Below, in pieces: positions 1,744 to 63,453 of a stretch of DNA of 64,000 bases. The DNA is from Candidatus Omnitrophota bacterium (GTDB lineage: Bacteria; Omnitrophota; Gorgyraeia; Zapsychrales; Fredricksoniimonadaceae). The stretch spans positions 9,905 through 73,904 of the forward strand of contig JABDFL010000001.1 of the NCBI GenBank assembly GCA_013286575.1. The letters run 5' to 3'. Numbering within the stretch: the first letter of the stretch is position 1; every line of letters begins with the position of its first letter. The translations under genes were made by a program, and so were the position numbers. A model generated the notes under the pieces. It was not told where the DNA came from. It ran no database searches and worked only from the letters and a program-made list of their open reading frames with translations.

Positions 1744-4668
1744 ATGTATTTTATGATGAGAAATTTTGGTATTGGTTTTTTGGTGTTCTGTTTTGTTTTT
1801 TCCAGCGTTAATTTGGGCCTGGCGGCCCAGGTCGTAGAAGTCCCGCCCATCATTGTCGAGCCTTCCTATAATTTAAGTGAAATAAACGAGCAGATGCTTG
1901 AGCAGGACAGGATAAACCGGGACCAGGAATTAGCGATCAAAGGCCTTGCCGAGCAAAACCAGAGTCTCGCCCAGACAGCCCAACAGGACAGCACTCTTGA
2001 TCAAATCAACCAAACCATGCTTAATTACCGCAATGCGCTTTTAGAACGCGACCGCGCCCGTATCATGGCCAATGGCCTGAGGGCTTCCCGGTACGATGAT
2101 CTGATCGCCTTGACTGAAGATGTCGACGGCATGAAAGGCGTCGGCCCGACCTTACAGCTTAAAAGTGACCTGATCGAACAGAAATATAAAATCCTCATGG
2201 ACCTTAAAAATGAGATGGTCGTCCTGAATAAAAAGCTCGAAGAAGAAGCGCTGCATAAGCATTCTGAAAACATAAACCAGGAACAAGCACAAAAAATCCT
2301 GTTCCTCACCCAAAGATTGGCTGAATTGGACCAAAGGGTCTCCCGTTACGACGAGATCTTGGCCGAAAAAGACCAGCAGATCGCCCAATTGAAATTTAGT
2401 TTAGCCGGGGCCCGAAAAGAGGCCGCGGGTAAAGATATCCAGTTAGGCCAATTGAGGCTGCAGTTGTCCCAAACACAGACCCAGGTGGGTTTATTAAAAT
2501 CAGAACTTGAGAACAGGATCGCCCGAGAGAATAATCAGGACCAGGAGAGCTCTGCCCAAAAAGCCCAAGTGGACCAATTGAAAATGCAGTTGTCCCAAAA
2601 ACAGGCCCAGGTGGATTTATTAAAATCAGAACTTGAGAATAAGATCACCGAAGAGAATAATCAAGGCCAAGAGGCTTCCGCCAAAGATGAGATGGTCAAA
2701 CAGCAGCGCGATCAGATAACTGTTTTGAAGGCACAGGCGCAGGAATTATCTTCTAAAGAAGAGCTGATGCAATCACAGGCAGACCAAATGGCCAAGGAAT
2801 TAGGATTATACAAGGACCAGGGCACGGCGTATGCCAGCCTGCAGGCCGAGTTTATGGCTTTAAAAAATAAAATCAGCAGCCAGGCCGTTGATTTAAAAAT
2901 CAAGAATGAATCCATCCGCTGGTTAAACCAGGTCCTGGCCGTTACCAAAAACAAGGCGGAATATTATAGGTTGACTGCCCAGCAGGACCGCATGACGATG
3001 CGGCAAGTCCAGGATGCAGTGCTGAAGGTCAAGGATGATTTTACCCGGCATTTTAAGGATTACGATCAATTTGAAAATGCCATTATTTCCTTAAAGGAGC
3101 AGGTGGGCCGTATGGGCGGGTTATTATCCCAAAAGCAGGAGCAGGTGGAACTGTTAACACAGTCACAGCAGGAGCTAAAGGCCCAGCTTCGGGAAAAAGA
3201 AAATCAAATAGACGATCGCATCAGCTTGGCCAAACATTTGATCGCCCTGCAGCAGCAGGAAGCATCTTTATTGCAGGAGAAAGGCAGCCTCGAGGCAAGT
3301 CAAAACGACCTTTTTGACAGGCATTTCCTTGATCTTGAGAAGAAAATCAAGGGCTTGGCTGCCAATCACCAACTTCAGGCCATGGATCTGCAAAGCCGTA
3401 TGGAAGAATTGAGAGAAGAACTTGAGCTTAAAGAGCAGCAGGGGAAGTCGCTCAGGACAGAATTAGAAAATAAGATTGCCGACGAGAAAAACCAAAGCGT
3501 GCTGGCCTCCCAGATCCAGGATTTGGAAGCCCAGCTCCAGGATAAGGAAAACCAGATCAGCGCCATGAAAACGGAAATCCAGTCAGGCCGGGAGACACAA
3601 GACCAAACAGACACCCTGAGGCAGCAATTGGCGGACCAGCAGAATAAAGCGGATGTACTAAAGCAGGAGCTAGACAGTAAGAATGCCCAATCCGACAAAA
3701 TGACCCTGATGATCTCCGATTATCAGCAAAAACTGGAGTCCAAGGACAATGCCTATAATGAAGAATTGCAGCAGGTGCTGGATTCCAAAAATGCCCAGGC
3801 CCAGATGGAAGGGCAGATCGTTGATTTAAATGCCCGGCTGCAGCAAAAAGAGGCGCAGATCGTCGAGATTAAAAAGAACTTGTACGATTTACAGCAATCA
3901 ATGGGGGCCAGGGACAGGGAGTCCCAAACCCATGATCTAAGCCTTTCCATAATGCAGCAGAAAATGCTGGATGGGAAGATCAATGAATATCAGGACAAAA
4001 TAAATGGATTGCAGGCAACCAATGACAGGCAGGCAGGGCAGGTGGCAAAACTTAAAGCTGATTTGGCACTGGCCCGCCAGCAGCTGGTCGGCGGCATGCC
4101 CAGCAGCGACGAGATTGATTTCCTGAGGGCAGGGCTTAATAAGGCCGCCCTGCAGTTAAAGCAAAAAGATGCGATGCTTTTACAAATCAAGGCCAATGCC
4201 GATGAGTATGAAAAAGAATTCAAGGAGCAGACCCAGGAATTTTTAAGCTTAAAGGAGCAGTTGCAAAATGCCCTGGATAAAATCAGCCGCAAGGATGAAG
4301 ACCTGACATACAAAAACATGGAAATAATCCGCCTCAAAGAGCGTTCCCATAATTTGGGGAATGGTGATTTGCAAAACCAGGTGAGGGTATTGACCCGGAA
4401 GCTTGAGGCTGCCGAGAAAAGACTCCGCAGTAAAACCTATGGGGGCGGGAAAGCAGGGATACTGGAAGGCCAGTTAGAGGACGCCAACGAACAGATCAAA
4501 GAGCTCCATGCCCAGTTAAATGAGTTCATCCTACCTGCCAAAAGCGATGCCCTTAGGGAAAAATTAAAACAGGCTTTGGATAAAGTTGATCAACAGGGAC
4601 ATATGATCAATGTCTTGGTCCAGAAATTGCAGGACGCCGGGAAGAGTGTCAATCTCAGCCAACTGTAG
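1744..4668 (+). CDS. Very large secreted or membrane-anchored coiled-coil protein (974 aa).
   Basis: N-terminal hydrophobic signal or TM segment (FGIGFLVFCFVFSSVNLGLAAQ). The rest is rich in Q/E/K/L heptad-like sequence with repeated LKSELENKI and QLQ motifs. No enzymatic domain recognised. Confidence 0.7.
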   Translation: MYFMMRNFGIGFLVFCFVFSSVNLGLAAQVVEVPPIIVEPSYNLSEINEQMLEQDRINRDQELAIKGLAEQNQSLAQTAQQDSTLDQINQTMLNYRNALLERDRARIMANGLRASRYDDLIALTEDVDGMKGVGPTLQLKSDLIEQKYKILMDLKNEMVVLNKKLEEEALHKHSENINQEQAQKILFLTQRLAELDQRVSRYDEILAEKDQQIAQLKFSLAGARKEAAGKDIQLGQLRLQLSQTQTQVGLLKSELENRIARENNQDQESSAQKAQVDQLKMQLSQKQAQVDLLKSELENKITEENNQGQEASAKDEMVKQQRDQITVLKAQAQELSSKEELMQSQADQMAKELGLYKDQGTAYASLQAEFMALKNKISSQAVDLKIKNESIRWLNQVLAVTKNKAEYYRLTAQQDRMTMRQVQDAVLKVKDDFTRHFKDYDQFENAIISLKEQVGRMGGLLSQKQEQVELLTQSQQELKAQLREKENQIDDRISLAKHLIALQQQEASLLQEKGSLEASQNDLFDRHFLDLEKKIKGLAANHQLQAMDLQSRMEELREELELKEQQGKSLRTELENKIADEKNQSVLASQIQDLEAQLQDKENQISAMKTEIQSGRETQDQTDTLRQQLADQQNKADVLKQELDSKNAQSDKMTLMISDYQQKLESKDNAYNEELQQVLDSKNAQAQMEGQIVDLNARLQQKEAQIVEIKKNLYDLQQSMGARDRESQTHDLSLSIMQQKMLDGKINEYQDKINGLQATNDRQAGQVAKLKADLALARQQLVGGMPSSDEIDFLRAGLNKAALQLKQKDAMLLQIKANADEYEKEFKEQTQEFLSLKEQLQNALDKISRKDEDLTYKNMEIIRLKERSHNLGNGDLQNQVRVLTRKLEAAEKRLRSKTYGGGKAGILEGQLEDANEQIKELHAQLNEFILPAKSDALREKLKQALDKVDQQGHMINVLVQKLQDAGKSVNLSQL
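2461..2706 (+). repeat. Intragenic tandem duplication of about 2 x 123 bp (about 85% identity) inside the coiled-coil gene.
   Basis: cagttgtcccaaa.acag.cccaggtgg.tttattaaaatcagaacttgagaa... occurs at 2461 and again at 2587. The protein repeats are LSQTQTQVGLLKSELENRIARENNQDQESSAQK and LSQKQAQVDLLKSELENKITEENNQGQEASAK. Confidence 0.7.
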
Positions 4669-5014
4669 CGCGGACCTTTTCTAATAAGTCCGGGGTGTTG
4701 ACAGGTTTTAAGAGGTAGGCTTTGATCCTGTGCCGTTTAAACAATGGCTCTGTCTTGCTTTCGGCAGTCAGGACAATGACGGGGATTGCGGCAATGGCAG
4801 GGTCGCTGTTTTTCTTCATGATAAAGGTATAGCCATCCATCTTGGGCATGTGCACGTCCAACAAAATCAGGTCCGGTATTTTCTTCTTCAATACTTCCAA
4901 AGCTTGCTCGCCATCTTCAGCCGAAATGACATCATACCCATTGCTTTGGAGCGTGTGTTTAATAAGATCAACATTGACACGATCGTCATCCACCACAAAA
5001 ATACATTTAGGCAT
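4655..5014 (-). CDS. Stand-alone response-regulator receiver (CheY-like REC) domain protein.
   Basis: 119 aa: VVDDDRVNVDLIKHTLQSNGYDV...LILLDVHMPKMDGYTF...VIVLTA..K. Has the phospho-acceptor Asp and conserved Lys, and no output domain. Its 3' end overlaps the end of the convergent 1744..4668 gene by 14 nt. Confidence 0.8.
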   Translation of the reverse strand: MPKCIFVVDDDRVNVDLIKHTLQSNGYDVISAEDGEQALEVLKKKIPDLILLDVHMPKMDGYTFIMKKNSDPAIAAIPVIVLTAESKTEPLFKRHRIKAYLLKPVNTPDLLEKVRATVG

Positions 5015-5122
5015 CAGTTTTTAGTCCTTATTTTATTTCCGCGTTGGCTTTGTTCCCCGGATTCTATCTTTTACTAAATTACCGGGCTTGTCAACGTTTT
5101 TAAAAACAGTTTTTGACCGGCC

Positions 5123-5191
5123 TCATCGTTCATTTTTGTCCAAAGATCTGTAACCGACAGCCTCGGCGATATGCGGGGCTTCGATGGTTCC
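5123..5191 (-). pseudogene. Orphan duplicate of the comM 3' end. It encodes ...GTIEAPHIAEAVGYRSLDKNER*, whereas comM ends ...PEHIAEAVGYRSLDRASF*.
   Basis: Translation of the minus strand gives a 12/12 aa match to the ComM C-terminus with many synonymous DNA differences. It lies just beyond the RAYT gene, on the side away from comM. Confidence 0.5.
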
Positions 5192-5216
5192 ATTATACCT
5201 CCGGGAGGTGTAATGG
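5190..5216. repeat. 27-nt near-perfect palindrome (REP-like hairpin) CCATTATACCTCC-G-GGAGGTGTAATGG. It overlaps the 3' end of the RAYT gene.
   Basis: Self-complementary with one mismatch. A second copy lies at 5513-5539. Confidence 0.7.
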
Positions 5217-5714
5217 TGTGGAAGCAGAAGAATAGGGCCACTCTTCAGGCGTTTTTATAATATTTTCTTTAACAGGATTGTAATGCACGTATTGGATCCG
5301 GTTATTCAATCCCTTTATATCCAGAATGATTCGGTTGCCAAATCGATTTTGCCATAATGGTCCCCGCCGATTGTGTCTTAAGTTGAAATAATTGGAATAA
5401 GCATTTAATGTCCTTCGCATAAAGGTTTCAATTCCCTTATTTTCCAATTGTTGAAGTATGAAATGGACGTGGGTGGGCATTAGGCAGAAAGCAATGATGT
5501 TTACTAAAGGGACCATTACACCTCCGGGTGGTGTGATGGCGGTTCTTTTTATTACGTAACTAAAAGGCCTGATATGTCCGTCATATCTGTAGTATTCCAT
5601 TAGCCCCAGCATTCTTTGGTATTCTTCTTTACAACTGAAGATCGTATACCCGTAGATGCTTTTGTTATAAATGTGATGGAATGATTTATTTTCAAAAGGA
5701 CAAAGGCGTTTCAT
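5193..5714 (-). CDS. REP-associated tyrosine transposase (RAYT), of the IS200/IS605 TnpA-like HUH Y1 family.
   Basis: 173 aa. HuH motif MPTHVHFIL. C-terminal block YVHYNPVKENIIKTPEEWPYSS matches the RAYT signature (Y...NPV...WP.SS). Both palindrome copies are translated within the ORF (ITPPGGVMV internally, TPLHLPEV at the C-terminus). Confidence 0.75.
   Translation of the reverse strand: MKRLCPFENKSFHHIYNKSIYGYTIFSCKEEYQRMLGLMEYYRYDGHIRPFSYVIKRTAITPPGGVMVPLVNIIAFCLMPTHVHFILQQLENKGIETFMRRTLNAYSNYFNLRHNRRGPLWQNRFGNRIILDIKGLNNRIQYVHYNPVKENIIKTPEEWPYSSASTPLHLPEV
5513..5539. repeat. Second copy of the REP-like palindrome (CCATTACACCTCC-G-GGTGGTGTGATGG, 2 mismatches), inside the RAYT coding sequence.
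   Basis: Same orientation as the copy at 5190-5216. It encodes an in-frame extra segment upstream of the HuH motif. Confidence 0.7.
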
Positions 5715-5720
5715 ATATTT

Positions 5721-7247
5721 TTAAAAAGAAGCCCTATCCAACGACCGGTATCCAACGGCTTCAGCAATATGTTCGGGTAAGATAACATCACTTCCAGCCA
5801 AGTCACTGATGGTGCGGGCGATTTTAAGGATTTTATCGTGCGCCCTTGCTGAGAATTTCAGTTCCTCCATGGCTGAGACCAATATCCTTTTGGCTTCTTT
5901 TGTAAGAGCACAAAAATTGCGCAAGTGCGCGCTTTCCATGTGGGCGTTGCATAAGACGGGTTGGCCCTGGAATCTCTGCCATTGCAGCTGGCGCGCCCGG
6001 GTGGTGCGCGCTTTGATGGCCAGGGACGTCTCTTCCAGGGGGACATCGATGAGTTCACGGGTTTTTAAAGGCAGGGCGTGCAAATGGATGTCGATGCGGT
6101 CGAGCAGGGGGCCGGAAATTTTTTGCCGGTAACGCTCAACCTGCAGGGAAGAGCAGCGGCAAATTTTTCCTGCCACGTCCTTCCAGCCGCACGGGCACGG
6201 GTTCATCGCCGCAAGGAGCATAAAGCGGGTGGGAAATCGTAAACTCCCCCTGGAGCGCGCGATGGTGACATACCCGTCTTCTAAGGGCTGTCTCAAAACT
6301 TCCAGCACATGGCGGTTGAATTCCAGGAATTCATCCAGGAATAAAACGCCGTTATGCGCCAGGGTCACTTCACCCGGGCGGGGCCCGCTGCCGCCGCCGA
6401 TAATGGCCGTGTCCGAGGCCGTGTGATGAGGTGCCCTAAAGGGGCGCTGGGTGATAATACCGTCGGTGTTTCTAAGCAGGCCGGCCACCGAATGGATCTG
6501 GGTGGTTTGCAGCACTTCGGCCGGCGTCATGTCCGGTAAAATGGTGGGCAGGCGTTTGGCCAGCATGGTCTTGCCGCTGCCGGGAGCGCCGATGAGCAGG
6601 ACATTATGCCCGCCGGCAGCTGCTACCTCAAGGCCCCGTTTAAGGGATTGCTGGGCCTTGACTTCGCTAAAATCCAAACGGCTGGGACGGGAATTCTTAA
6701 GCAGGAAATCAAAATCTGTTTTTACAGGCGTCAGCGTTTGCGGGTCCATTAAAAAAGCCACCACTTCGTTTAAATGCCGCGCAGGGAAAACCGGACAGCC
6801 GGCCAGGGCCGCTTCTTTGGCATTTTCAAAAGGAACTATAAGGCCCCGGCAATTACTGGAGGCCGCAGCCAGCGCAACAGACAAAGCACCCTGCACAGGC
6901 TGTACGCGTCCGTCCAAAGAAAGTTCACCTAAAAAAGCATACGGGTCTAAAGCCTCCTGAGATATTAAGCCCTGTGCTGCCAAAACACCCAGGGCAATGG
7001 CCAGATCATAACAGGCCCCTTGCTTTTTGGTGTCCGCAGGCGATAAATTGATGGTGATCCTTTGGGTGGGAAATTCAAAGTCGCTGTTTTTGATGGCCGC
7101 GCGGATGCGCTCACGGCTTTCTTTAACAGCATTGTCCGGCAAGCCGACAACGATGGTGTTGGGTAATCCAGCGCTTATATCCGTTTCAATGGCAACAGGA
7201 TAGGCTTCCAGGCCGCAAAGGCCAAACGAAGAGATTCGGGCTAGCAT
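5721..7247 (-). CDS. comM: Mg-chelatase-like AAA+ ATPase of the YifB/ComM family.
   Basis: ORF track 5721..7307. The conserved N-terminus MLARISSFGL...GLPNTIVVGLPDNAVKESRERI begins at the Met at 7247. Walker A GAPGSGKT, sensor motifs and a C-terminal helix-turn-helix-like tail are present. Confidence 0.85.
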   Translation of the reverse strand: MLARISSFGLCGLEAYPVAIETDISAGLPNTIVVGLPDNAVKESRERIRAAIKNSDFEFPTQRITINLSPADTKKQGACYDLAIALGVLAAQGLISQEALDPYAFLGELSLDGRVQPVQGALSVALAAASSNCRGLIVPFENAKEAALAGCPVFPARHLNEVVAFLMDPQTLTPVKTDFDFLLKNSRPSRLDFSEVKAQQSLKRGLEVAAAGGHNVLLIGAPGSGKTMLAKRLPTILPDMTPAEVLQTTQIHSVAGLLRNTDGIITQRPFRAPHHTASDTAIIGGGSGPRPGEVTLAHNGVLFLDEFLEFNRHVLEVLRQPLEDGYVTIARSRGSLRFPTRFMLLAAMNPCPCGWKDVAGKICRCSSLQVERYRQKISGPLLDRIDIHLHALPLKTRELIDVPLEETSLAIKARTTRARQLQWQRFQGQPVLCNAHMESAHLRNFCALTKEAKRILVSAMEELKFSARAHDKILKIARTISDLAGSDVILPEHIAEAVGYRSLDRASF

Positions 7248-7381
7248 ATGAAGTCCACTATGGTAGGGGGAATTAACGGTCACACAACGCTTGCTTGGGG
7301 GAAGCAAGCATCACTTGCTTTTTTGAAGAGCAAGGATATAATGTAAGCCTAACATAAACAGGATTATCCGTCAAATTTTTC

Positions 7382-32561: not shown

Positions 32562-32570
32562 AAATAGAAT

Positions 32571-32600
32571 GTCATCCCCGAATGTTTCTGTCGGGGATCT
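32571..32600. repeat. Hairpin repeat family B (GTCATCCCCGAATGTTTCTGTCGGGGATCT).
   Basis: 8-bp stem TCCCCGA/TCGGGGA. A second copy is at 34147-34177. Confidence 0.6.
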
Positions 32601-32614
32601 AATAAGAGGAGCAT

Positions 32615-34079: not shown

Positions 34080-34120
34080 GTGTCATTGCGAGGAGCCGGA
34101 GGCGACGAAGCAATCTTTTA
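34080..34120. repeat. Hairpin repeat family A (GTGTCATTGCGAGGAGC..GGCGACGAAGCAATCTTTT), copy 1.
   Basis: Begins 6 nt after the purQ stop. There are 5 copies in the window (34080, 34188, 43783, 61928, 63181). Confidence 0.7.
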
Positions 34121-34146
34121 ACACTGTCATTCCTTGGATTTTACAT

Positions 34147-34177
34147 TGTCATTCCCGAATGTTTTTGTCGGGAATCT
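34147..34177. repeat. Hairpin repeat family B copy (GTCATTCCCGAATGTTTTTGTCGGGAATCT).
   Basis: Stem ATTCCCGA/TCGGGAAT. Confidence 0.6.
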
Positions 34178-34187
34178 AGAACAAGTT

Positions 34188-34228
34188 GTGTCATTGCGAG
34201 GAGCTGAAGGCGACGAAGCAATCTTTTT
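34188..34228. repeat. Hairpin repeat family A, copy 2.
   Basis: GTGTCATTGCGAGGAGCTGAAGGCGACGAAGCAATCTTTTT. Confidence 0.7.
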
Positions 34229-34233
34229 AGAAT

Positions 34234-42381: not shown

Positions 42382-43805
42382 TACCGTTGTTTATTTATTA
42401 TCCTCAACTCTCCCTGGTCCGCGACGCGCTTAAGGGCAGCAAGCGCCGTGTGTTCCTGGTCGGAGGCGCCTTGCGCGATTATTATTTAAACCGCCGCGGG
42501 ACTGATTTTGATTTCGCTGTTGACCAGGGGGCCGTTGCCTTGTCCCGCCGATTAGCCCATCAGCTTAAAGCTGCTTTTGTCCTGCTTGACCGCGAGCATG
42601 GCAGTGCCCGTGTCGTCAAAAAGATAGATGGGGTGGTCTGTACTTTTGATTTCACCGATTGGCGGGGCAGGAGCATTCAAAAAGATTTAAATTTGCGCGA
42701 TTTTACCATTAACGCGTTGGCCGTGGATATTTTTGATAAAGACGCTGGCATCCTGGAGGTCAAAGGGTCCCGGCGGGACCTAAAAGCAGGTGTGGTGCGC
42801 ATGGTTTCCCCCCAGGTCTTTAGAGACGATCCTTTAAGGCTTTTACGCGCCTTTACCCTGCAGGCCACCCTTGGTTTTAAGATGGATGCCGGGACAGGCG
42901 TGCAAATCAAAAAAGACGCGCATTTAATTTCCCTGTCAGCTGCGGAAAGGATACGCGAAGAGATTTTTAAGGTATTGGCTTCACCCCGTGCGGCCGCAAC
43001 ATTATCCGCTATGGATAAGATCGGGCTTTTGCCTCAGGTTATCCCGCAGATCACTGTCATGTACGGTGTCCATCAGGGCGGTTATCATCATTTGGATGTT
43101 TGGCGGCATACGCTTGAAGTGCTTGCAAAGGTTGAAAAATTCATCGAAGAGCCGGGCGCTGATGAGCGCATGAAGGCGTATTGGCACCAGCCTATCGGCG
43201 GAGGGCACACGCGCTATGCGCTTTTGAAAATGGCCGCGCTTTTGCATGACGTAGGAAAACCGGAAACCCGGAAGCTTGAGGCGAAGCGCATGACTTTTCA
43301 CGGCCATGAGCATGCGGGCGAAAGGATAACCCGTCAGGTCGCCAAGCATTTGAAATTATCCGTTAAGGAACGTTTTTTTCTGGAAGATGCGGTAAGGATG
43401 CACCTGAGGCCGGGCTATCTGTCAAATTTCAAACGCCCCAGTGAAAAAGCGATATTCCGGTATCTGCGCGACACGAAAGATGAAGCCGTCAGTTTGGCAG
43501 TTCTGGGTCTGGCAGACCAGGCCGCGACATGCGGCCCCTTGACCACCAAAGCCAAGCATAGGCATCATGCTAAAATCTGCCACATGCTCATCGAACGTTA
43601 TTTTGAACTCAAAGACCGGAAGCCCCGGCAACGCCTGCTCACAGGCCATGATTTGATCAAGGTCCTGAAATTAAAACCTTCAGAGCTGTTTGGAAAAATC
43701 CTCTCCGGCATCGAAGAAGCCGCAGCTTTGGGTAAAATAAAAACAAAAGCCGAGGCACTGAATTTGGCTCGACAAATGAATGTGTCATTGCGAGGAACGA
43801 AGTGA
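42378..43805 (+). CDS. cca: tRNA nucleotidyltransferase (CCA-adding enzyme / poly(A) polymerase family) with an HD domain.
   Basis: 475 aa: FLVGGALRDYYLNRRGTDFDFAV. HD motif HDVGK. Its last 8 codons and stop lie inside a family-A repeat. Confidence 0.8.
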   Translation: MIPLFIYYPQLSLVRDALKGSKRRVFLVGGALRDYYLNRRGTDFDFAVDQGAVALSRRLAHQLKAAFVLLDREHGSARVVKKIDGVVCTFDFTDWRGRSIQKDLNLRDFTINALAVDIFDKDAGILEVKGSRRDLKAGVVRMVSPQVFRDDPLRLLRAFTLQATLGFKMDAGTGVQIKKDAHLISLSAAERIREEIFKVLASPRAAATLSAMDKIGLLPQVIPQITVMYGVHQGGYHHLDVWRHTLEVLAKVEKFIEEPGADERMKAYWHQPIGGGHTRYALLKMAALLHDVGKPETRKLEAKRMTFHGHEHAGERITRQVAKHLKLSVKERFFLEDAVRMHLRPGYLSNFKRPSEKAIFRYLRDTKDEAVSLAVLGLADQAATCGPLTTKAKHRHHAKICHMLIERYFELKDRKPRQRLLTGHDLIKVLKLKPSELFGKILSGIEEAAALGKIKTKAEALNLARQMNVSLRGTK

Positions 43806-43821
43806 CGAAGCAATCTTTTTA
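43783..43821. repeat. Hairpin repeat family A, copy 3, spanning the cca stop and the ygfZ-like start.
   Basis: GTGTCATTGCGAGGAACGAAGTGACGAAGCAATCTTTTT supplies the cca C-terminus ...SLRGTK* and the GTG start plus MTKQSF of the next gene. Confidence 0.7.
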
Positions 43822-44443
43822 CAGGCTCCCCGACACCGTTTTTAGCATTAAAGGCAATGCTTCTCAATTCTTAAATGGGATCACTTCCAATACATTGGAC
43901 GCATTGCTCAATGCCTTTTTAAACCAGCATGGCCGCATCATCGCCACCTTTCGCCAGCAAAAAATCAGCGACGATGAATTCCTGATCAGTGTGCCTGTCA
44001 TCGCCGTGGATAATCTATTAAAACACCTGGATCGTTATGCCCGGCTGAGCCACACCCGGATAGAGCAGTCCACTCAGGGTTCTTATATGGATTTGGACAC
44101 CGCCAAAACCGTATGGTCATCACAGCCCCAGACTAACAGTATCAGCGATGAGGAGTTTACACTTTTTCGTCTTGACCATAATATCCCGTTGATGGGTGTT
44201 GATTATCAGGCCGATGAATTTATACTCAACGTGCATGAGTTTGATTATGTTTCTTATACCAAAGGCTGTTTTTTAGGCCAGGAGCCTGTGGCCAAGGTGC
44301 ATAACCGCGCCCAACCCGTTCGCCGTCTGATCACCCAATTTGCCGATCAATGCTCCCCGGAAGATGCCGCCAAAATGACTTCCAAGATCCAGGACCCCGC
44401 AACCGGCCGTCTAAAAGGCTTTGTATTTGTAAGCAATAAATGA
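43802..44443 (+). CDS. Folate-binding YgfZ/GcvT-like protein.
   Basis: 213 aa. KGCFLGQE matches the YgfZ K-G-C-(Y/F)-x-G-Q-E signature. The GTG start is provided by the repeat. Confidence 0.65.
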   Translation: MTKQSFYRLPDTVFSIKGNASQFLNGITSNTLDALLNAFLNQHGRIIATFRQQKISDDEFLISVPVIAVDNLLKHLDRYARLSHTRIEQSTQGSYMDLDTAKTVWSSQPQTNSISDEEFTLFRLDHNIPLMGVDYQADEFILNVHEFDYVSYTKGCFLGQEPVAKVHNRAQPVRRLITQFADQCSPEDAAKMTSKIQDPATGRLKGFVFVSNK

Positions 44444-60433: not shown

Positions 60434-61713
60434 ATGCCCTCACTTATCTAAACTCCTTTGTTAATTTTGAATCCCAGCTCCATAAACTGGGCCCTGAAGA
60501 TTTTAGCCTCAACCGCATTGAAAAGTTTTTGGATTTGGCCGGAAACCCGGCCAAGAATTTAAAGATCATCCATGTCGCAGGCACTAAGGGCAAGGGATCA
60601 ACCTGTGCGTTTTTAGCCGGTATTTTGCAGGAGGCCGGCTACAAGGTAGGGTTATATACCTCGCCGCACTTGCACAAGGTCAATGAACGTATCCGTATTT
60701 TAAATGCGGAGAATATCCGCTCCAAAGATGATTTTTGCGGCTCAATCAGCGACGATGAATTAGCTTCGGTGCTGGCCCAAATACGCCCTTTTGCCGCTGC
60801 CATCCAGAATGAGGGTAATATCCTTACCTATTTCGAAGTCCTGACAGTGGCGGCCTTGTGTTATTTTGCCAGGGCATGCGTGGACGTGGTCATTTTAGAA
60901 ACCGGTTTGGGCGGCCGTCTGGATGCGACCAATGCGGTTGATTCCTTAATTGCTGTGATCACACCGGTCAGTCTGGACCATGTCCGTATACTAGGCAATA
61001 CTTTAGGTAAAATAGCGGCAGAGAAGGCGGGCATTATAAAAGATTCCCGCCAGCAGGCCGTGATTGCTCCTCAAGAAAAAGAAGCCATGGATATTTTACT
61101 TCAACGTTGCCGGGAGTTTGGTGTCCATCCGGTCCTGGTCAATTTGGAAAAGTATAAAAATTTGAAAATCGGCCTTAAGGGCACGCATCAAAAGATCAAT
61201 GCCGCGACCGGCCTGGAAACGGTGGGGATTTTAAAGAAAATGGGGTTTCACATCAGTGATAAAGCGATCAGTGACGGATTAATTAATGTCCGTTGGCCCG
61301 GCCGTTTTGAATTATTGCATCAGGCGCCGGATGTGATCGTTGATTGCGCGCATAATGAAGCTTCTGCCCGGGCCTTGGCCCAGACCTTGAAGGGGGAATA
61401 TCATCAGCGACGGGTGATTTTAGTGCTGGGAGTCTCCCAAGACAAAGACGTGAAGGCCATTTGTTATTCTTTAAAGAATAGTGTAGCGCATATTATCCTG
61501 ACCAGGGCCGGCCATCCCCGGGCCCACTCTTTTAAGGAAGCAGAAGGTAAGGACTATTTTGGGGGGAAATCTTTTGAGATCATGGAAAGCCTGCCTCAAG
61601 CGCTGGAAAAGGCCCTGCAGCAGGCAGGCCCGCAAGATGTGATTTTAGTAACAGGTTCTGTTTTCGTAGTGGCAGAAGCAACGGAGTTCTTATGTACCAA
61701 TATAAAGGCCTAG
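60430..61713 (+). CDS. folC: Folylpolyglutamate synthase / dihydrofolate synthase.
   Basis: 427 aa: HVAGTKGKGST, ILETGLGGRLDATN. Confidence 0.8.
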   Translation: MNALTYLNSFVNFESQLHKLGPEDFSLNRIEKFLDLAGNPAKNLKIIHVAGTKGKGSTCAFLAGILQEAGYKVGLYTSPHLHKVNERIRILNAENIRSKDDFCGSISDDELASVLAQIRPFAAAIQNEGNILTYFEVLTVAALCYFARACVDVVILETGLGGRLDATNAVDSLIAVITPVSLDHVRILGNTLGKIAAEKAGIIKDSRQQAVIAPQEKEAMDILLQRCREFGVHPVLVNLEKYKNLKIGLKGTHQKINAATGLETVGILKKMGFHISDKAISDGLINVRWPGRFELLHQAPDVIVDCAHNEASARALAQTLKGEYHQRRVILVLGVSQDKDVKAICYSLKNSVAHIILTRAGHPRAHSFKEAEGKDYFGGKSFEIMESLPQALEKALQQAGPQDVILVTGSVFVVAEATEFLCTNIKA

Positions 61714-63176
61714 AAGACACGATTGCCGCCATTGCGACTCCTGCCGGACAAGGCGGGATCGGCATTGTGCGTATCAGCGGTAAGGATGCGATTACGGTCG
61801 CGGATGCGGTGCTTCGTCTTCAAGGGGACAAATCATTAGCGCAGTGCAAGAGCCATACGGTCCATTATGCCCGTGTCATTAGTCCCAATAGTGTCAAAAG
61901 GCCCAATAGCATCGACGTCGCAGAGTTGTGTCATTGCGAGGAGCGTTTTCCAGCGACGAAGCAATCTTTTTTGAAAAATGAAAATATCATTGATGAAGTT
62001 TTAGTAACATTGATGAAAGCACCAAAAAGTTACACCGCCGAAGACGTGGTCGAAATCAATTGCCACGGCGGCATGACTGTCCTGCGTGCGGTGCTTGAAG
62101 AAGTCTTGTCCGCAGGAGCGCGCCCGGCAACTCCGGGAGAATTCACCAAACGGGCCTTTCTTCATGGCCGTATGGATTTGGCCCAGGCCGAGGCAGTGAT
62201 TGATATCATCCAGGCACGGACTTCAAACTTTTTACGCCAGAGCCAGCATCAATTAAAAGGGGAATTATCGATCCAGCTTAATGCCATACGCGCAGAGTTG
62301 ATCAAGCTTTATACGATGGTAGAGGCATTGATTAATTTTCCCGAGGATGGCATTGACGCCCAAGGCCGTCAGCAAATTTTAGACCGCATCAGTATTCAAG
62401 AGAAGGGTATCGCTAAACTGTTGAAATCCTCCGAGAGCGGCCGTATCCTTAAAGAAGGCATACGCATCGTCTTATGCGGCAAGCCCAATGTAGGCAAATC
62501 TTCTTTACTGAACGCTCTTCTCAAAGAACAGCGCGCCATTGTCACCAATATCGCCGGCACCACCCGCGATGTCCTGGAAGAATCAGCGCAAATCAAAGGC
62601 ATTCCCATTTCATTAGTCGACACCGCCGGTATTTTGGAACCAAGGGATCTCATTGAAAAGGAAGCCATATCACGCAGCCATCTTTACATCAAAGGCGCTG
62701 ATCTGGTATTTTTGGTGCTGGACCATAGTCACCCGTTAGAAGAGCAGGACAGGCTGCTGATGCAGCAATTAAAAACCGCCAGGGTTTTGGTCGTAGTTAA
62801 TAAAATAGATTTAGAGGGCAAGATAGACCTGTCAGTGCCCAAAGGAATATTCGGCCCGGAGCATGTGATAGAAGTTTCAGCGCTTGAACCTCAATCCATG
62901 CAGGGCCTGGAAGCAAAGATCGTTGATTTGATCCTCAAGGACAAAGATCTCGATACCCACGGCATTCTGGTCAGCAATGTCCGTCATGTTAAGGCATTGG
63001 AAGAAGCGCAAAGAAACCTGCAAGACGCCGTCCGCCTGATGGACCAAAACACTTCCCTGGAATTTATCTCCGAAGAACTAAAAAGCGCCGTCAACCAGTT
63101 GGACGCCATCACCGGCCGCAACATCGACGAAGACCTCCTGGACCGCATCTTTTCCGAATTCTGTATTGGAAAATAA
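61692..63176 (+). CDS. mnmE: tRNA modification GTPase MnmE (TrmE), with a repeat-derived in-frame insertion in its N-terminal domain.
   Basis: 494 aa: IAAIATPAGQGGIGIVRISG, G-domain GKPNVGKSSLLN, DTAG, NKID, C-terminal CIGK. The N-terminal domain carries an extra segment (...ELCHCEERFPATKQSFL...) encoded by a family-A repeat. Confidence 0.85.
   Translation: MYQYKGLEDTIAAIATPAGQGGIGIVRISGKDAITVADAVLRLQGDKSLAQCKSHTVHYARVISPNSVKRPNSIDVAELCHCEERFPATKQSFLKNENIIDEVLVTLMKAPKSYTAEDVVEINCHGGMTVLRAVLEEVLSAGARPATPGEFTKRAFLHGRMDLAQAEAVIDIIQARTSNFLRQSQHQLKGELSIQLNAIRAELIKLYTMVEALINFPEDGIDAQGRQQILDRISIQEKGIAKLLKSSESGRILKEGIRIVLCGKPNVGKSSLLNALLKEQRAIVTNIAGTTRDVLEESAQIKGIPISLVDTAGILEPRDLIEKEAISRSHLYIKGADLVFLVLDHSHPLEEQDRLLMQQLKTARVLVVVNKIDLEGKIDLSVPKGIFGPEHVIEVSALEPQSMQGLEAKIVDLILKDKDLDTHGILVSNVRHVKALEEAQRNLQDAVRLMDQNTSLEFISEELKSAVNQLDAITGRNIDEDLLDRIFSEFCIGK
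61928..61972. repeat. Hairpin repeat family A, copy 4, in-frame inside mnmE.
   Basis: GTGTCATTGCGAGGAGCGTTTTCCAGCGACGAAGCAATCTTTTTT translates as (E)LCHCEERFPATKQSFL. Confidence 0.7.
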
Positions 63177-63180
63177 GTGT

Positions 63181-63223
63181 GTGTCATTGCGAGGAGGCGT
63201 AGCCGACGAAGCAATCTTTTTAC
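63181..63223. repeat. Hairpin repeat family A, copy 5 (GTGTCATTGCGAGGAGGCGTAGCCGACGAAGCAATCTTTTTAC), just after the mnmE stop.
   Basis: Same head and tail as the other copies; the central segment is variable. Confidence 0.7.
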
Positions 63224-63257
63224 GCTCCACGCCATCTAGGGCTGACGCTGATATATT

Positions 63258-63286: not shown

Positions 63287-63453
63287 TGCGTTTATTCGGG
63301 TGTTGTGTTTTCTTCGAAGGTAGTAGAAGGCGGTCCCCGAACGTTTAGTTCGGGGAAAAGCAGCCTGGTGACTAGCGATGCCGCACCGCAGGGTGCGGCG
63401 AGCGTGCCTGAGAAGAAAATACAATGCCTGAATATATGCGTGAGTAGGTGAGT

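Follow-up and report, generated by a model that had tools for sequence, protein, structure and literature searches.

The 64-kb stretch of DNA analysed here (the window) carries an unusual variant of the REP-RAYT system, and represents neither a decaying gene nor a new kind of element. A REP-RAYT system usually consists of a gene and extragenic flanking hairpins, whereas in this case the gene itself incorporates the hairpins: one gives the stop codon and appears to have replaced an accessory domain, and another is translated as a surface loop. The explanation that we judge probable is that of a domesticated, vertically inherited RAYT of an Omnitrophota-type family, whose own REP hairpins colonised the gene and were tolerated in its permissive parts.

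The RAYT gene and the palindromes within its reading frame

Homology and structure prediction concur in placing the product of the gene (Table 1), present in one copy in the window, among the RAYT-type Y1 transposases. Its 173-aa reading frame is intact, and is a minimal version within a family whose usual size is 205-235 aa. The protein scores 26.4 bits against Pfam PF01797 (Y1_Tnp; cutoff 23) and 71.8 bits against NCBIfam REP_Tyr_transpos, short of the curated cutoff of 80 and aligning over residues 71-162 only. In the PDB, TnpA_REP (4ER8) is the top match to the sequence (E 1.8e-11) as well as to the fold of an AF2 model with a pLDDT of 88.8 (E 1.2e-7, TM about 0.6). The AF2 model also matches IS608 and ISDra2 TnpA, but the similarity to these is weaker (sequence E about 4e-3, fold E about 1e-4). 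Among 26 family members, H82 and H84 of the HuH motif and P147 are invariant, and Y142, H144 and N146 nearly so. The catalytic tyrosine motif aligns with YIYINPVKHG of 4ER8, and the catalytic residues, together with all invariant family residues, are intact in the window. The RAYT hallmarks recognised in the initial annotation are thereby borne out. Given its homology to E. coli TnpA_REP, the predicted activity of the enzyme is to bind REP hairpins in single-stranded DNA and to cut or rejoin them.

Table 1. Features of the RAYT locus, in window coordinates
Feature	Position	Strand	Basis
Orphan second copy of the yifB C-terminus, TIEAPHIAEAVGYRSLDKNER*	5123..5188	(-)	tblastn, translation
3' REP, 27-nt palindrome, 13-bp stem, CCATTATACCTCCGGGAGGTGTAATGG	5190..5216	(.)	sequence, mismatch search
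RAYT-type Y1/HUH transposase gene	5193..5714	(-)	ORF, 173 aa, intact
Catalytic tyrosine motif, Y142-V-H-Y-N-P-V	5271..5291	(-)	sequence
HuH motif, H82-V83-H84 in MPTHVHFIL	5463..5471	(-)	sequence
Internal REP copy, CCATTACACCTCCGGGTGGTGTGATGG	5513..5539	(.)	sequence, mismatch search
Empty site of the upstream REP, 6-nt spacer between yifB stop and RAYT ATG	5715..5720	(-)	orthologue comparison
yifB/comM-type Mg-chelatase-like ATPase gene, upstream neighbour	5721..7307	(-)	ORF; Pfam

The initial annotation had raised the possibility that the transposase is decaying, and a pseudogene overrun by repeats would be in keeping with the loss of an upstream REP and the eroding internal hairpin in the window genome, with a protein shorter than most of its relatives, and with an orthologue (L106) split by indels. 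This reading is very improbable. Comparison of the window, L002 and L003 gives a dN/dS of 0.064-0.079 at dS 0.64-0.83, and such strong purifying selection (0.06-0.08) indicates that the gene is not decaying; the intact frame, the full set of invariant residues and the confident fold model argue likewise. In L106 the neighbouring yifB is fragmented too, suggesting assembly indels.

Two copies of the palindrome (ACCATTACACCTCC-S-GGAGGTGTAATGGT) lie within the reading frame, as had been reported. A search allowing up to 3 mismatches found no further sites in the 64-kb window, a 17-nt core search of the window returned the same two sites and no others, solo copies of the 27-mer were found neither in the window nor in an extra 4.8 kb of locus L001, and 100 shuffles gave 0 matches. 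The 3' copy (coding strand CCA TTA CAC CTC CCG GAG GTA TAA) supplies the TAA stop and codons 167-173 (PLHLPEV), and forms the right boundary of the RAYT cassette. The internal copy (coding strand (G)CC ATC ACA CCA CCC GGA GGT GTA ATG G) encodes AITPPGGVM(V), residues 59-68, in a loop just N-terminal of the beta hairpin bearing HuH; its palindrome-encoded part thus amounts to about 9-10 codons, and not to the ~16-aa segment first described. Both REP-encoded peptides are modelled by AF2 as low-confidence coil. The two copies are read in different frames, and their likeness therefore lies at the DNA and not the protein level. The 'same orientation' originally ascribed to them is set by the central base only and carries little meaning. 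That base occupies a synonymous third codon position, and on the coding strand it is C in the window but G in all orthologues.

Elsewhere, the window's 27-mer is dispersed in about 15 distinct intergenic contexts on peat metagenome contigs, and thus behaves as a REP; no RAYT was found in the DNA fetched around 16 metagenome loci carrying it. Judged from these other contigs, the palindrome is a genuine dispersed REP-like element, as had been proposed. The presence of two copies in one gene might otherwise be put down to coincidence, or to a protein-level preference for Pro/Gly-rich linkers, the apex CCSGG encoding Pro-Gly in some frames and so suiting loops. This reading is refuted by the frame difference together with the dispersed intergenic copies, and hardly any weight can be given to it in view of the shuffled controls and the recurrence of the pattern with unrelated palindromes (described below).

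The predicted DNA hairpin of the 3' REP has a dG of -8.6 and -7.5 kcal/mol and folding z-scores of -4.5 and -4.3. Folding of the 27-mer, which the initial annotation had put forward as a check, is thus well supported for the 3' copy but weak for the internal copy (z-scores of -1.2 to -1.9), whose hairpin is eroded in the window to 11/13 pairs. The mismatches differ between the strands (sense C.A, antisense G.T), an asymmetry that was dropped as evidence because the events are too few and are ordinary transitions. A role of the 3' REP as an intrinsic terminator on the coding strand was rejected, there being no T-run after it. The sole terminator-like prediction concerned the internal copy on the + strand, which runs antisense to the gene, and was not built upon because the A-run that gives rise to it is missing in the L027 clade. 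Positions 4500-6500 gave nothing meaningful when searched for known RNA families, with one chance-level match (E 0.43).

Orthologous loci and the conservation of the palindrome copies

The upstream neighbour of the RAYT gene is yifB, with Pfam ChlI, Mg_chelatase and Mg_chelatase_C found on the L001 gene identical to window yifB. This neighbour is common to L002, L003, L106, L107 and L108, so that the chromosomal location of the RAYT is constant among its orthologues, six including the window. These five distinct orthologues combine yifB synteny with a three-copy layout, in which one palindrome recurs at the upstream, internal and 3' positions, and the internal copy stands at the same position in each of them and in L004. 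The upstream REP, 26-27 nt in length and just before the ATG, is present in 5/5 of them and is missing only in the window, as a clean loss (TTTTTAA[CCATTACACCTCCCGGAGGTATAACGA]AATATG in L002, TTTTTAAAAATATATG in the window). The orphan copy of the yifB C-terminus directly follows the 3' REP, so that the REP-RAYT-REP cassette is flanked by two yifB 3' ends; L106 has a longer yifB remnant at the same place.

A cassette bounded exactly by palindromes and lying between two yifB 3' ends could be taken for an autonomous IS200/IS605-type insertion sequence. The palindromes would then be the hairpins of its left and right ends, and the internal copy the scar of a nested or recombinant element. The Y1_Tnp fold is in keeping with this, as are the differing genomic contexts of the RAYT gene in L004, L102, L103, L104 and L023. 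Such an origin is nevertheless improbable. The yifB-adjacent position is the same in six orthologues, at the dS given above for the window, L002 and L003, which indicates vertical descent and not recent transposition. The 64-kb window holds a single copy rather than several near-identical ones, the palindromes occur solo and without a transposase in the metagenome contexts described above rather than as distinct end hairpins confined to an element, and the protein matches TnpA_REP better, by sequence and by fold, than IS608 or ISDra2 TnpA. The N- and C-terminal halves of the gene are similarly diverged, with no sign of a chimera, and a chimeric gene joined at the internal REP was rejected on this ground.

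The two copies in the reading frame differ in their conservation. The 3' copy is conserved at the DNA level beyond coding needs: across the six orthologues, 26/27 of its columns are invariant, compared with 69.8% in the core CDS (P=8e-4), as are 8/9 of its third codon positions, compared with 45% (P=0.009). By contrast, the internal copy drifts neutrally in the window's lineage, with 19/27 columns invariant across the same orthologues, which is the background rate, and with synonymous changes having disrupted two of its pairs in the window and L107.

Recurrent internal copies in the RAYT family

The canonical REP-RAYT-REP arrangement is seen at most of 80 family loci, where matching palindromes specific to the lineage lie before the gene and at or beyond its stop. 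Several RAYT paralogues coexist in the MAGs CAYSSM01, DATEAX01 and DAOSLF01, and each is paired with a REP type of its own. An internal copy is absent from about 90% of ~85 family loci. Three lineages whose REP sequences are unrelated have an internal copy of their own REP, and in each it occupies the same loop, namely the window clade (including L004), the L025/L027/L110 clade (LHP.G.GG in P0040-P0042 and P0044, LYPGGGGG in P0045, decayed in P0043), and L087. Matches of at least 75% between a locus's own REP and the interior of its own gene occur at 7/70 loci (including L031, where an upstream copy was counted as interior through a miscalled start), compared with 2/350 in a cross-locus control.

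The loop concerned is variable and family-specific, and measures 14 aa here compared with 21 aa in the nearest REP-less relatives; loop shortening goes with the internal REP in two lineages. The initial view of the internal segment as an insertion holds insofar as the Pfam and NCBIfam alignments start only at residue 71, breaking exactly at the internal copy, but not in the sense of an extra segment, since the loop is shorter than in those relatives. The 3' copy, for its part, stands in place of a ~50-aa C-terminal extension present in most of the family.

Sequence comparison points to concerted evolution, as internal copies in several lineages fit their own flanking REPs better than the orthologous internal copy. 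For example, the internal copy of L004 has 27/31 identity to its own 3' REP compared with 19-22/31 to the orthologous internal copies, those of L025 and L027 score 30 and 31, respectively, to their own copy compared with 27 in each case, and that of L110 is a perfect 14-bp palindrome, a variant of that genome's own REP. L025 and L027 have their upstream and 3' copies mutually inverted, as is classical for the two REPs flanking a RAYT gene; for the window, whose palindrome is near-perfect, no orientation can be defined. The suggestion that the palindrome is being written into a coding sequence fits well with this recurrence and concerted evolution in the relatives.

The same observations bear on a doubtful but possible alternative, in which the internal and flanking REPs form a cis-acting operator under selection. 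The hairpin in the rayt gene, as extruded DNA or mRNA, would be bound by RAYT, which would limit its own expression in this way, or translation would be modulated by the hairpin, the GGAGG and the in-frame ATG, for example through pausing or through initiation inside the gene, at M67, that yields a truncated inhibitor. Selection of this kind could explain the occurrence of own-REP copies at one and the same loop across three lineages, the co-variation of internal copies with flanking REPs, two paired stem changes in L003 (CCA..TGG to CCG..CGG and CA..TG to CC..GG), and the perfect internal palindromes of L108 and L110. The REP's right arm, GGAGGTGTAATGG, resembles an SD sequence and includes an ATG, which in the window, L107 and L108 falls in frame as M67. 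There are also parallels elsewhere: IS200 hairpins occlude the ribosome-binding site of the element, restraining its own expression, and in E. coli expression is reportedly lowered by REPs situated no more than about 15 nt from a stop codon. An operator sits poorly, however, with an internal copy no more conserved than the rest of the gene across six orthologues, with pairs broken by synonymous substitutions in the window and L107, with a window hairpin that folds barely better than shuffled sequence, and with the lack of an internal copy in the great majority of family loci. The in-frame ATG is missing in L002, L003, L106 and L004, and internal initiation at M67 was rejected as a conserved feature, the ATG being missing in half of the orthologues. 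One family protein (P0012) is a 107-aa product beginning after the internal REP, and its contig has a fragmented yifB too, which suggests assembly indels.

It is also conceivable, if unlikely, that the internal REP is a maintained self-target, acquired in one loop by several lineages independently, through which the enzyme senses or limits its own gene or drives its concerted evolution, with the REPs actively sculpting the protein through loop shortening and trimming of the C-terminal domain. Possible routes include autoregulation, self-nicking, and internal initiation from the GGAGG-ATG of the REP.

Proposed explanation and comparison with known systems

REPs flank the genes for RAYTs, often directly behind the stop codon, and the vicinity of rayt is a favoured site for the origin of new REPs (PMC2817692). 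Under the explanation favoured here, of a domesticated RAYT colonised by its own hairpins, REP copies would have spread to intergenic sites and preferentially to the rayt neighbourhood, and three copies would have become fixed at the gene in the window's lineage (before the ATG, at the 3' end, and in the loop), the upstream copy later being cleanly lost from the window genome. The 3' copy would have taken over the last seven codons and the stop, displacing the ~50-aa accessory C-terminal extension, and would be held by DNA-level constraint as a working REP, serving as cassette end, putative RAYT binding site and possibly also transcript-end hairpin. The internal copy would have inserted in frame into the flexible, family-specific surface loop ahead of the HuH strand and persisted as a tolerated passenger; the same loop would be struck repeatedly because only insertions in a permissive loop survive selection on the protein. 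This passenger may be re-homogenised intermittently to the genome's current REP variant, by re-insertion, gene conversion or palindrome-correcting template switching, with neutral drift between events. Left unexplained by the passive model alone are the two paired, compensatory changes in the internal copy of L003, the perfect internal palindromes in L108 and L110, and the tracking of own flanking REPs by internal copies across deep divergence, all of which would also fit selection on the internal hairpin.

The locus provides a natural read-out of where RAYT enzymes act in cis, and an example of mobile hairpins remodelling a protein-coding gene. One gene and three sites, with natural variants showing gain, loss and decay, make a compact system for the study of REP-RAYT matching, and REP-RAYT biology is extended to Omnitrophota-type uncultivated bacteria. 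Should the internal copy be regulatory, it would represent a new mode of transposase self-control.

Among known systems, E. coli TnpA_REP (YafM; 4ER8) with its REP/BIME elements shares with the window's family the HUH and Tyr Y1 fold, and the association with short GC-rich palindromes that are also dispersed between genes. The identity is only about 16%, and two features set the window's family apart, namely an additional ~25 aa inserted between helix 1 and the HuH hairpin and the C-terminal extension of ~50 aa that most members carry. The 27 nt of the window REP form a near-perfect palindrome, whose loop is 1-3 nt long and which lacks an unpaired GTAG head, unlike the E. coli REP, and its copies lie inside the ORF and not merely beside the gene.

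The REPIN-RAYT systems of Pseudomonas and Enterobacteria (Nunvar 2010, PMC2817692; Bertels and Rainey 2011; Bertels 2017, PMC5581495) have in common with the window's family the usual single copy of a given gene per genome (one copy in the 64-kb window), vertical inheritance and purifying selection, flanking REPs co-evolving with the RAYT, paralogous RAYTs with their own REP types in one genome, and REPs directly after the stop codon. By contrast, the REPs of the window's family appear as single hairpins and not as doublets (REPINs), the window REP overlaps and supplies the stop codon, and a further REP lies in frame in the CDS, whereas PMC2817692 and PMC5581495 describe REPs in extragenic flanks only. 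The hosts differ too, being Omnitrophota-type uncultivated bacteria here.

In the IS200/IS605 family (IS608, ISDra2, IS200), a Y1 transposase likewise acts on subterminal single-stranded DNA hairpins near the tnpA ends. Unlike these elements, the window RAYT is not multi-copy (in the 64-kb window) and holds a fixed position across orthologues, and its solo hairpins are dispersed without the gene. Finally, the REPs near E. coli stop codons, which reportedly lower translation, resemble the 3' copy of the window in placing a stable hairpin at or within a few nt of the stop, with the difference that in the window the stop lies inside the hairpin, and belongs to the very transposase that presumably acts on it.

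Transposase identity and the palindrome as a dispersed element

The initial annotation of the gene as a REP-associated tyrosine transposase (RAYT) is supported by both profile and structural model. The window protein scores 26.4 bits against Pfam Y1_Tnp (above the cutoff of 23) and 71.8 bits against NCBIfam REP_Tyr_transpos (slightly below the cutoff of 80), and retains every position conserved in the family, H82, H84, Y142, N146 and P147 among them. Compared with solved structures, a profile built from 26 homologues hit 4ER8, the E. coli TnpA_REP, at E 1.8e-11 but ISDra2 TnpA at only ~4e-3, and the AlphaFold model (pLDDT 88.8) gave 4ER8 as best fold match (E 1.2e-7, TM ~0.6), followed by IS608 and ISDra2 (E ~1e-4). 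The alternative of an autonomous IS200/IS605 element is poorly supported; the 64-kb window yielded no second Y1 transposase gene. The dN/dS of 0.064-0.079 (against orthologues at dS 0.64-0.83) shows that the gene is functional rather than decaying, contradicting the decay initially entertained, and a pseudogene is poorly supported. Scanning a single genome for each species turned up 401 relatives, the majority from Omnitrophota MAGs; in some cases several paralogues share a MAG. Sets of two to three divergent paralogues occur in MAGs CAYSSM01 (loci L032, L036, L079), DATEAX01 (L041, L066, L078) and DAOSLF01 (L051, L075), with a different flanking palindrome for each paralogue within one MAG.

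The 27-nt palindrome does occur twice within the RAYT gene, as first noticed, and at these two sites only in 64 kb (search with up to 3 mismatches), compared with no match in 100 shuffles of the window; coincidence of the two copies is poorly supported. A separate search with the 17-nt core returned the same sites, and no solo copy away from the RAYT gene was found within the 64-kb window. The two copies are read in different frames, which marks the repeat as an element of the DNA rather than a motif of the protein. The folding check proposed for the 27-mer gave a divided result, with a strong ssDNA hairpin for the 3' copy (-8.6 and -7.5 kcal/mol, z -4.5 and -4.3) but a weak one for the internal copy (z -1.9 and -1.2), in which 2 of 13 pairs are broken. 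In metagenomes, the 22-nt palindrome core matched 16 loci, nearly all with the full 27 nt, in ~15 distinct contexts, typically intergenic and directly after stop codons, including three copies in 1.3 kb in locus L019. The palindrome is thus a genuine dispersed REP-like hairpin. No RAYT homologue was found in the fetched DNA of these 16 loci. Across 80 related loci, lineage-specific palindromes flank most genes, both upstream and either at the stop or beyond it.

The REP right arm GGAGGTGTAATGG contains a Shine-Dalgarno-like GGAGG followed by ATG (both window copies; L002 161-190; L007 3066-3092; L015 3214-3240). In the orthologues the upstream REP places GGAGG, within the hairpin stem, 10-11 nt ahead of the RAYT start; in two solo REP contexts a downstream ORF could begin at the REP's own ATG; and the ATG of the internal copy is in frame as M67 in the window, L107 and L108.

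REP copies in the loop and at the C-terminus

The Pfam and NCBIfam profiles both align from residue 71 onward only, so that the alignment break falls exactly at the internal palindrome. The extra ~16-aa segment proposed in the note was not borne out: the loop is 14 aa in the window clade (yifB-linked orthologues plus L004) versus 21 aa in the nearest REP-less relatives (proteins P0005-P0010, including those of L102, L103, L104 and L023), and the REP accompanies a net shortening. Compared with TnpA_REP, the family adds residues ~43-68, which separate helix 1 from the HuH hairpin; both the length and the sequence of this loop vary across the family. Most family members also extend ~50 aa past the WxYSS motif, while proteins of the window and L025/L027 clades end at WxYSS, the REP giving the stop via GTAA, TTAG or GTAG. 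Both REP-encoded peptides are modeled as low-confidence coil.

This one apparently permissive loop has been occupied recurrently, and several internal copies match the REPs of their own genome better than they match the orthologous internal copy. Own-REP copies are present there in three lineages with different palindromes (the window clade, the L025/L027/L110 clade and L087). For example, in L004 (72% identity, different genomic locus; REP CCTTCCTAACACC-G-GGTGTTAGGAAGG), the internal copy matches the own REP at 27/31 positions versus only 19-22/31 for orthologous internal copies. The L025 and L027 copies match their own upstream REPs at 30/31 and 31/31, and each other at only 27, and L110 has yet another REP variant, internally a perfect 14-bp palindrome. 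In the distant L087 clade, 22/23 positions agree between the internal copy and the downstream REP, and here too the loop is shortened. The internal-copy frame differs between the window and L025/L027/L110 clades, which argues for independent events. In the L025/L027/L110 clade the REP-encoded loop peptide is LHP.G.GG in four proteins (P0040-P0042, P0044) and LYPGGGGG in P0045; it has decayed in P0043, and proteins from P0046 on lack it. In P0044, LHPRGGGG stands at the C-terminus as well as in the loop. In a per-locus scan of flanking hairpins against the interior of their own gene (at least 75% identity), matches occurred in 7/70 loci versus 2/350 cross-locus controls, one of the seven (L031) being really an upstream copy counted as interior through a miscalled start.

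Five more orthologues, all distinct, immediately follow the same yifB/comM-type gene: L107, L108 (to which L109 is identical), L002, L106 and L003. In 5/5 a third REP separates the yifB stop from the RAYT ATG; the window alone lacks it, and the gap there is near-exact (TTTTTAA followed by AAATATATG, versus TTTTTAA, 26-27 nt and AATATG). Since L107 is the closest relative of the window, the window has lost this REP recently and cleanly. In the 3' REP, no variation is seen at 26/27 columns versus 69.8% in the rest of the CDS (P=8e-4), and at 8/9 third codon positions versus 45% (P=0.009); this invariance beyond the CDS rate shows constraint as DNA. The internal copy, with 19/27 invariant columns, evolves at the background rate in the window clade. 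A selected autoregulatory role for the internal hairpin, the main rival explanation, is favored by co-variation, compensated stems and perfect copies: in L108 the internal copy equals the consensus REP exactly, and in L003 it has two paired stem changes. However, the background substitution rate speaks against it, as do the synonymous changes ATT to ATC and CCT to CCA, which disrupted two pairs in the window and L107 and point to neutral drift in that lineage, and such a role is considered rather unlikely.

In L106 (2354-4035), yifB (108 + 161 aa) and RAYT (52 + 107 aa) are both fragmented, the RAYT break lying just 5' of the internal REP, with a DDE IS240-type transposase nearby. Judging by its name, the contig probably comes from a long-read assembly, and the splits may be indel errors instead of true pseudogenes.

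Neighboring sequences in the window

Features of the window (positions in the window)
Feature	Position	Strand	Description
RAYT ORF	5193-5714	-	173 aa (ORF call)
3' palindrome copy	5190-5216		Coding strand CCA TTA CAC CTC CCG GAG GTA TAA; residues 167-173 (PLHLPEV) + stop
Internal palindrome copy	5513-5539		Coding strand (G)CC ATC ACA CCA CCC GGA GGT GTA ATG G; residues 59-68 (AITPPGGVMV)
Terminator-like site	5513-5549	+	Antisense to RAYT; internal copy, then CGGTTCTTTTT
Orphan yifB C-terminus	5123-5188	-	TIEAPHIAEAVGYRSLDKNER*; directly after 3' REP
Compared yifB end	5724-5765	-
Neighbor ORF	1744-4668	+	974 aa, convergent; Gln/Glu/Lys-rich, coiled-coil-looking
Tandem duplication in neighbor ORF	2439-2559, 2565-2685		126 nt, 81% identity
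Hairpin repeat GTGTCATTGCGAGGAGC...GACGAAGCAATC	34080-34125, 34188-34233, 43780-43825, 61924-61975, 63181-63226		5 copies; unrelated to the REP; mostly then T-run; mostly intergenic
Hairpin repeat TGTCATCCCCGAATGTTTCTGTCGGGGATCTA and variants	32565-32601, 34142-34178, 63324-63360		Third repeat; intergenic

The orphan yifB end differs from the real one in 9/12 codons, all synonymously, so that both must have been ends of functional genes while they diverged. This would fit a cassette that brought along a foreign yifB 3' end via homology-facilitated recombination. The remnant is notably well preserved in the window and longer in L106 (32 aa), and none was found in L107, L002 or L003. The antisense site scores as intrinsic-terminator-like; its T-run, which comes from Lys/Arg codons that precede the REP, is shared by the yifB-linked orthologues but absent in the L027 clade. 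The fourth GTGTCATTGCGAGGAGC...GACGAAGCAATC copy lies within a mechanical ORF (61692-63176), probably upstream of the true gene start, and the family also occurs in four distinct REP-bearing metagenome loci (L007, L013/L020, L014, L017). The TGTCATCCCCGAATGTTTCTGTCGGGGATCTA repeats adjoin GTCATTGCGAGG family copies in two places. The 974-aa ORF gave no Pfam match (checked in L001, which carries the identical yifB gene).

Proposed mechanism and comparison with known systems

The system comprises a functional RAYT-type gene, a dispersed REP family, and REP copies at the 5' end, loop and 3' end of the gene. The enzyme would bind and cut REP hairpins in ssDNA, seeding copies preferentially in cis, and protein-level selection would spare an insertion only if it is in frame and falls in the flexible loop or past the catalytic core, which would account for the hot spot as well as for the pruned C-terminal extension. 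Internal copies may occasionally be refreshed, by re-insertion, gene conversion or palindrome-correcting template switching, a process known for quasipalindromes, and would decay between refreshments. Taken as a whole, this account of cis-seeded REPs tolerated in permissive sites is held with moderate confidence.

By most of the membership tests run, the locus appears to work like a REP-RAYT system, the curated NCBIfam cutoff being narrowly missed. Most of the 80 related loci match the canonical REP-RAYT-REP layout (Nunvar et al., PMC2817692), in which REPs often immediately follow the rayt stop codon and REP production is preferential near rayt. The multi-paralogue MAGs, each paralogue with its own palindrome, resemble Pseudomonas with several RAYT-REPIN pairs, and the host group, Omnitrophota-type MAGs, lies outside the classic RAYT literature. 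By contrast, the literature compared places REPs in extragenic flanks only, or leaves intragenic copies unmentioned, whereas here copies also lie inside the ORF; thus, two things look like new features of these systems, namely a REP that is translated within the rayt ORF and recurs at one loop, and a REP giving the stop codon while replacing a domain.
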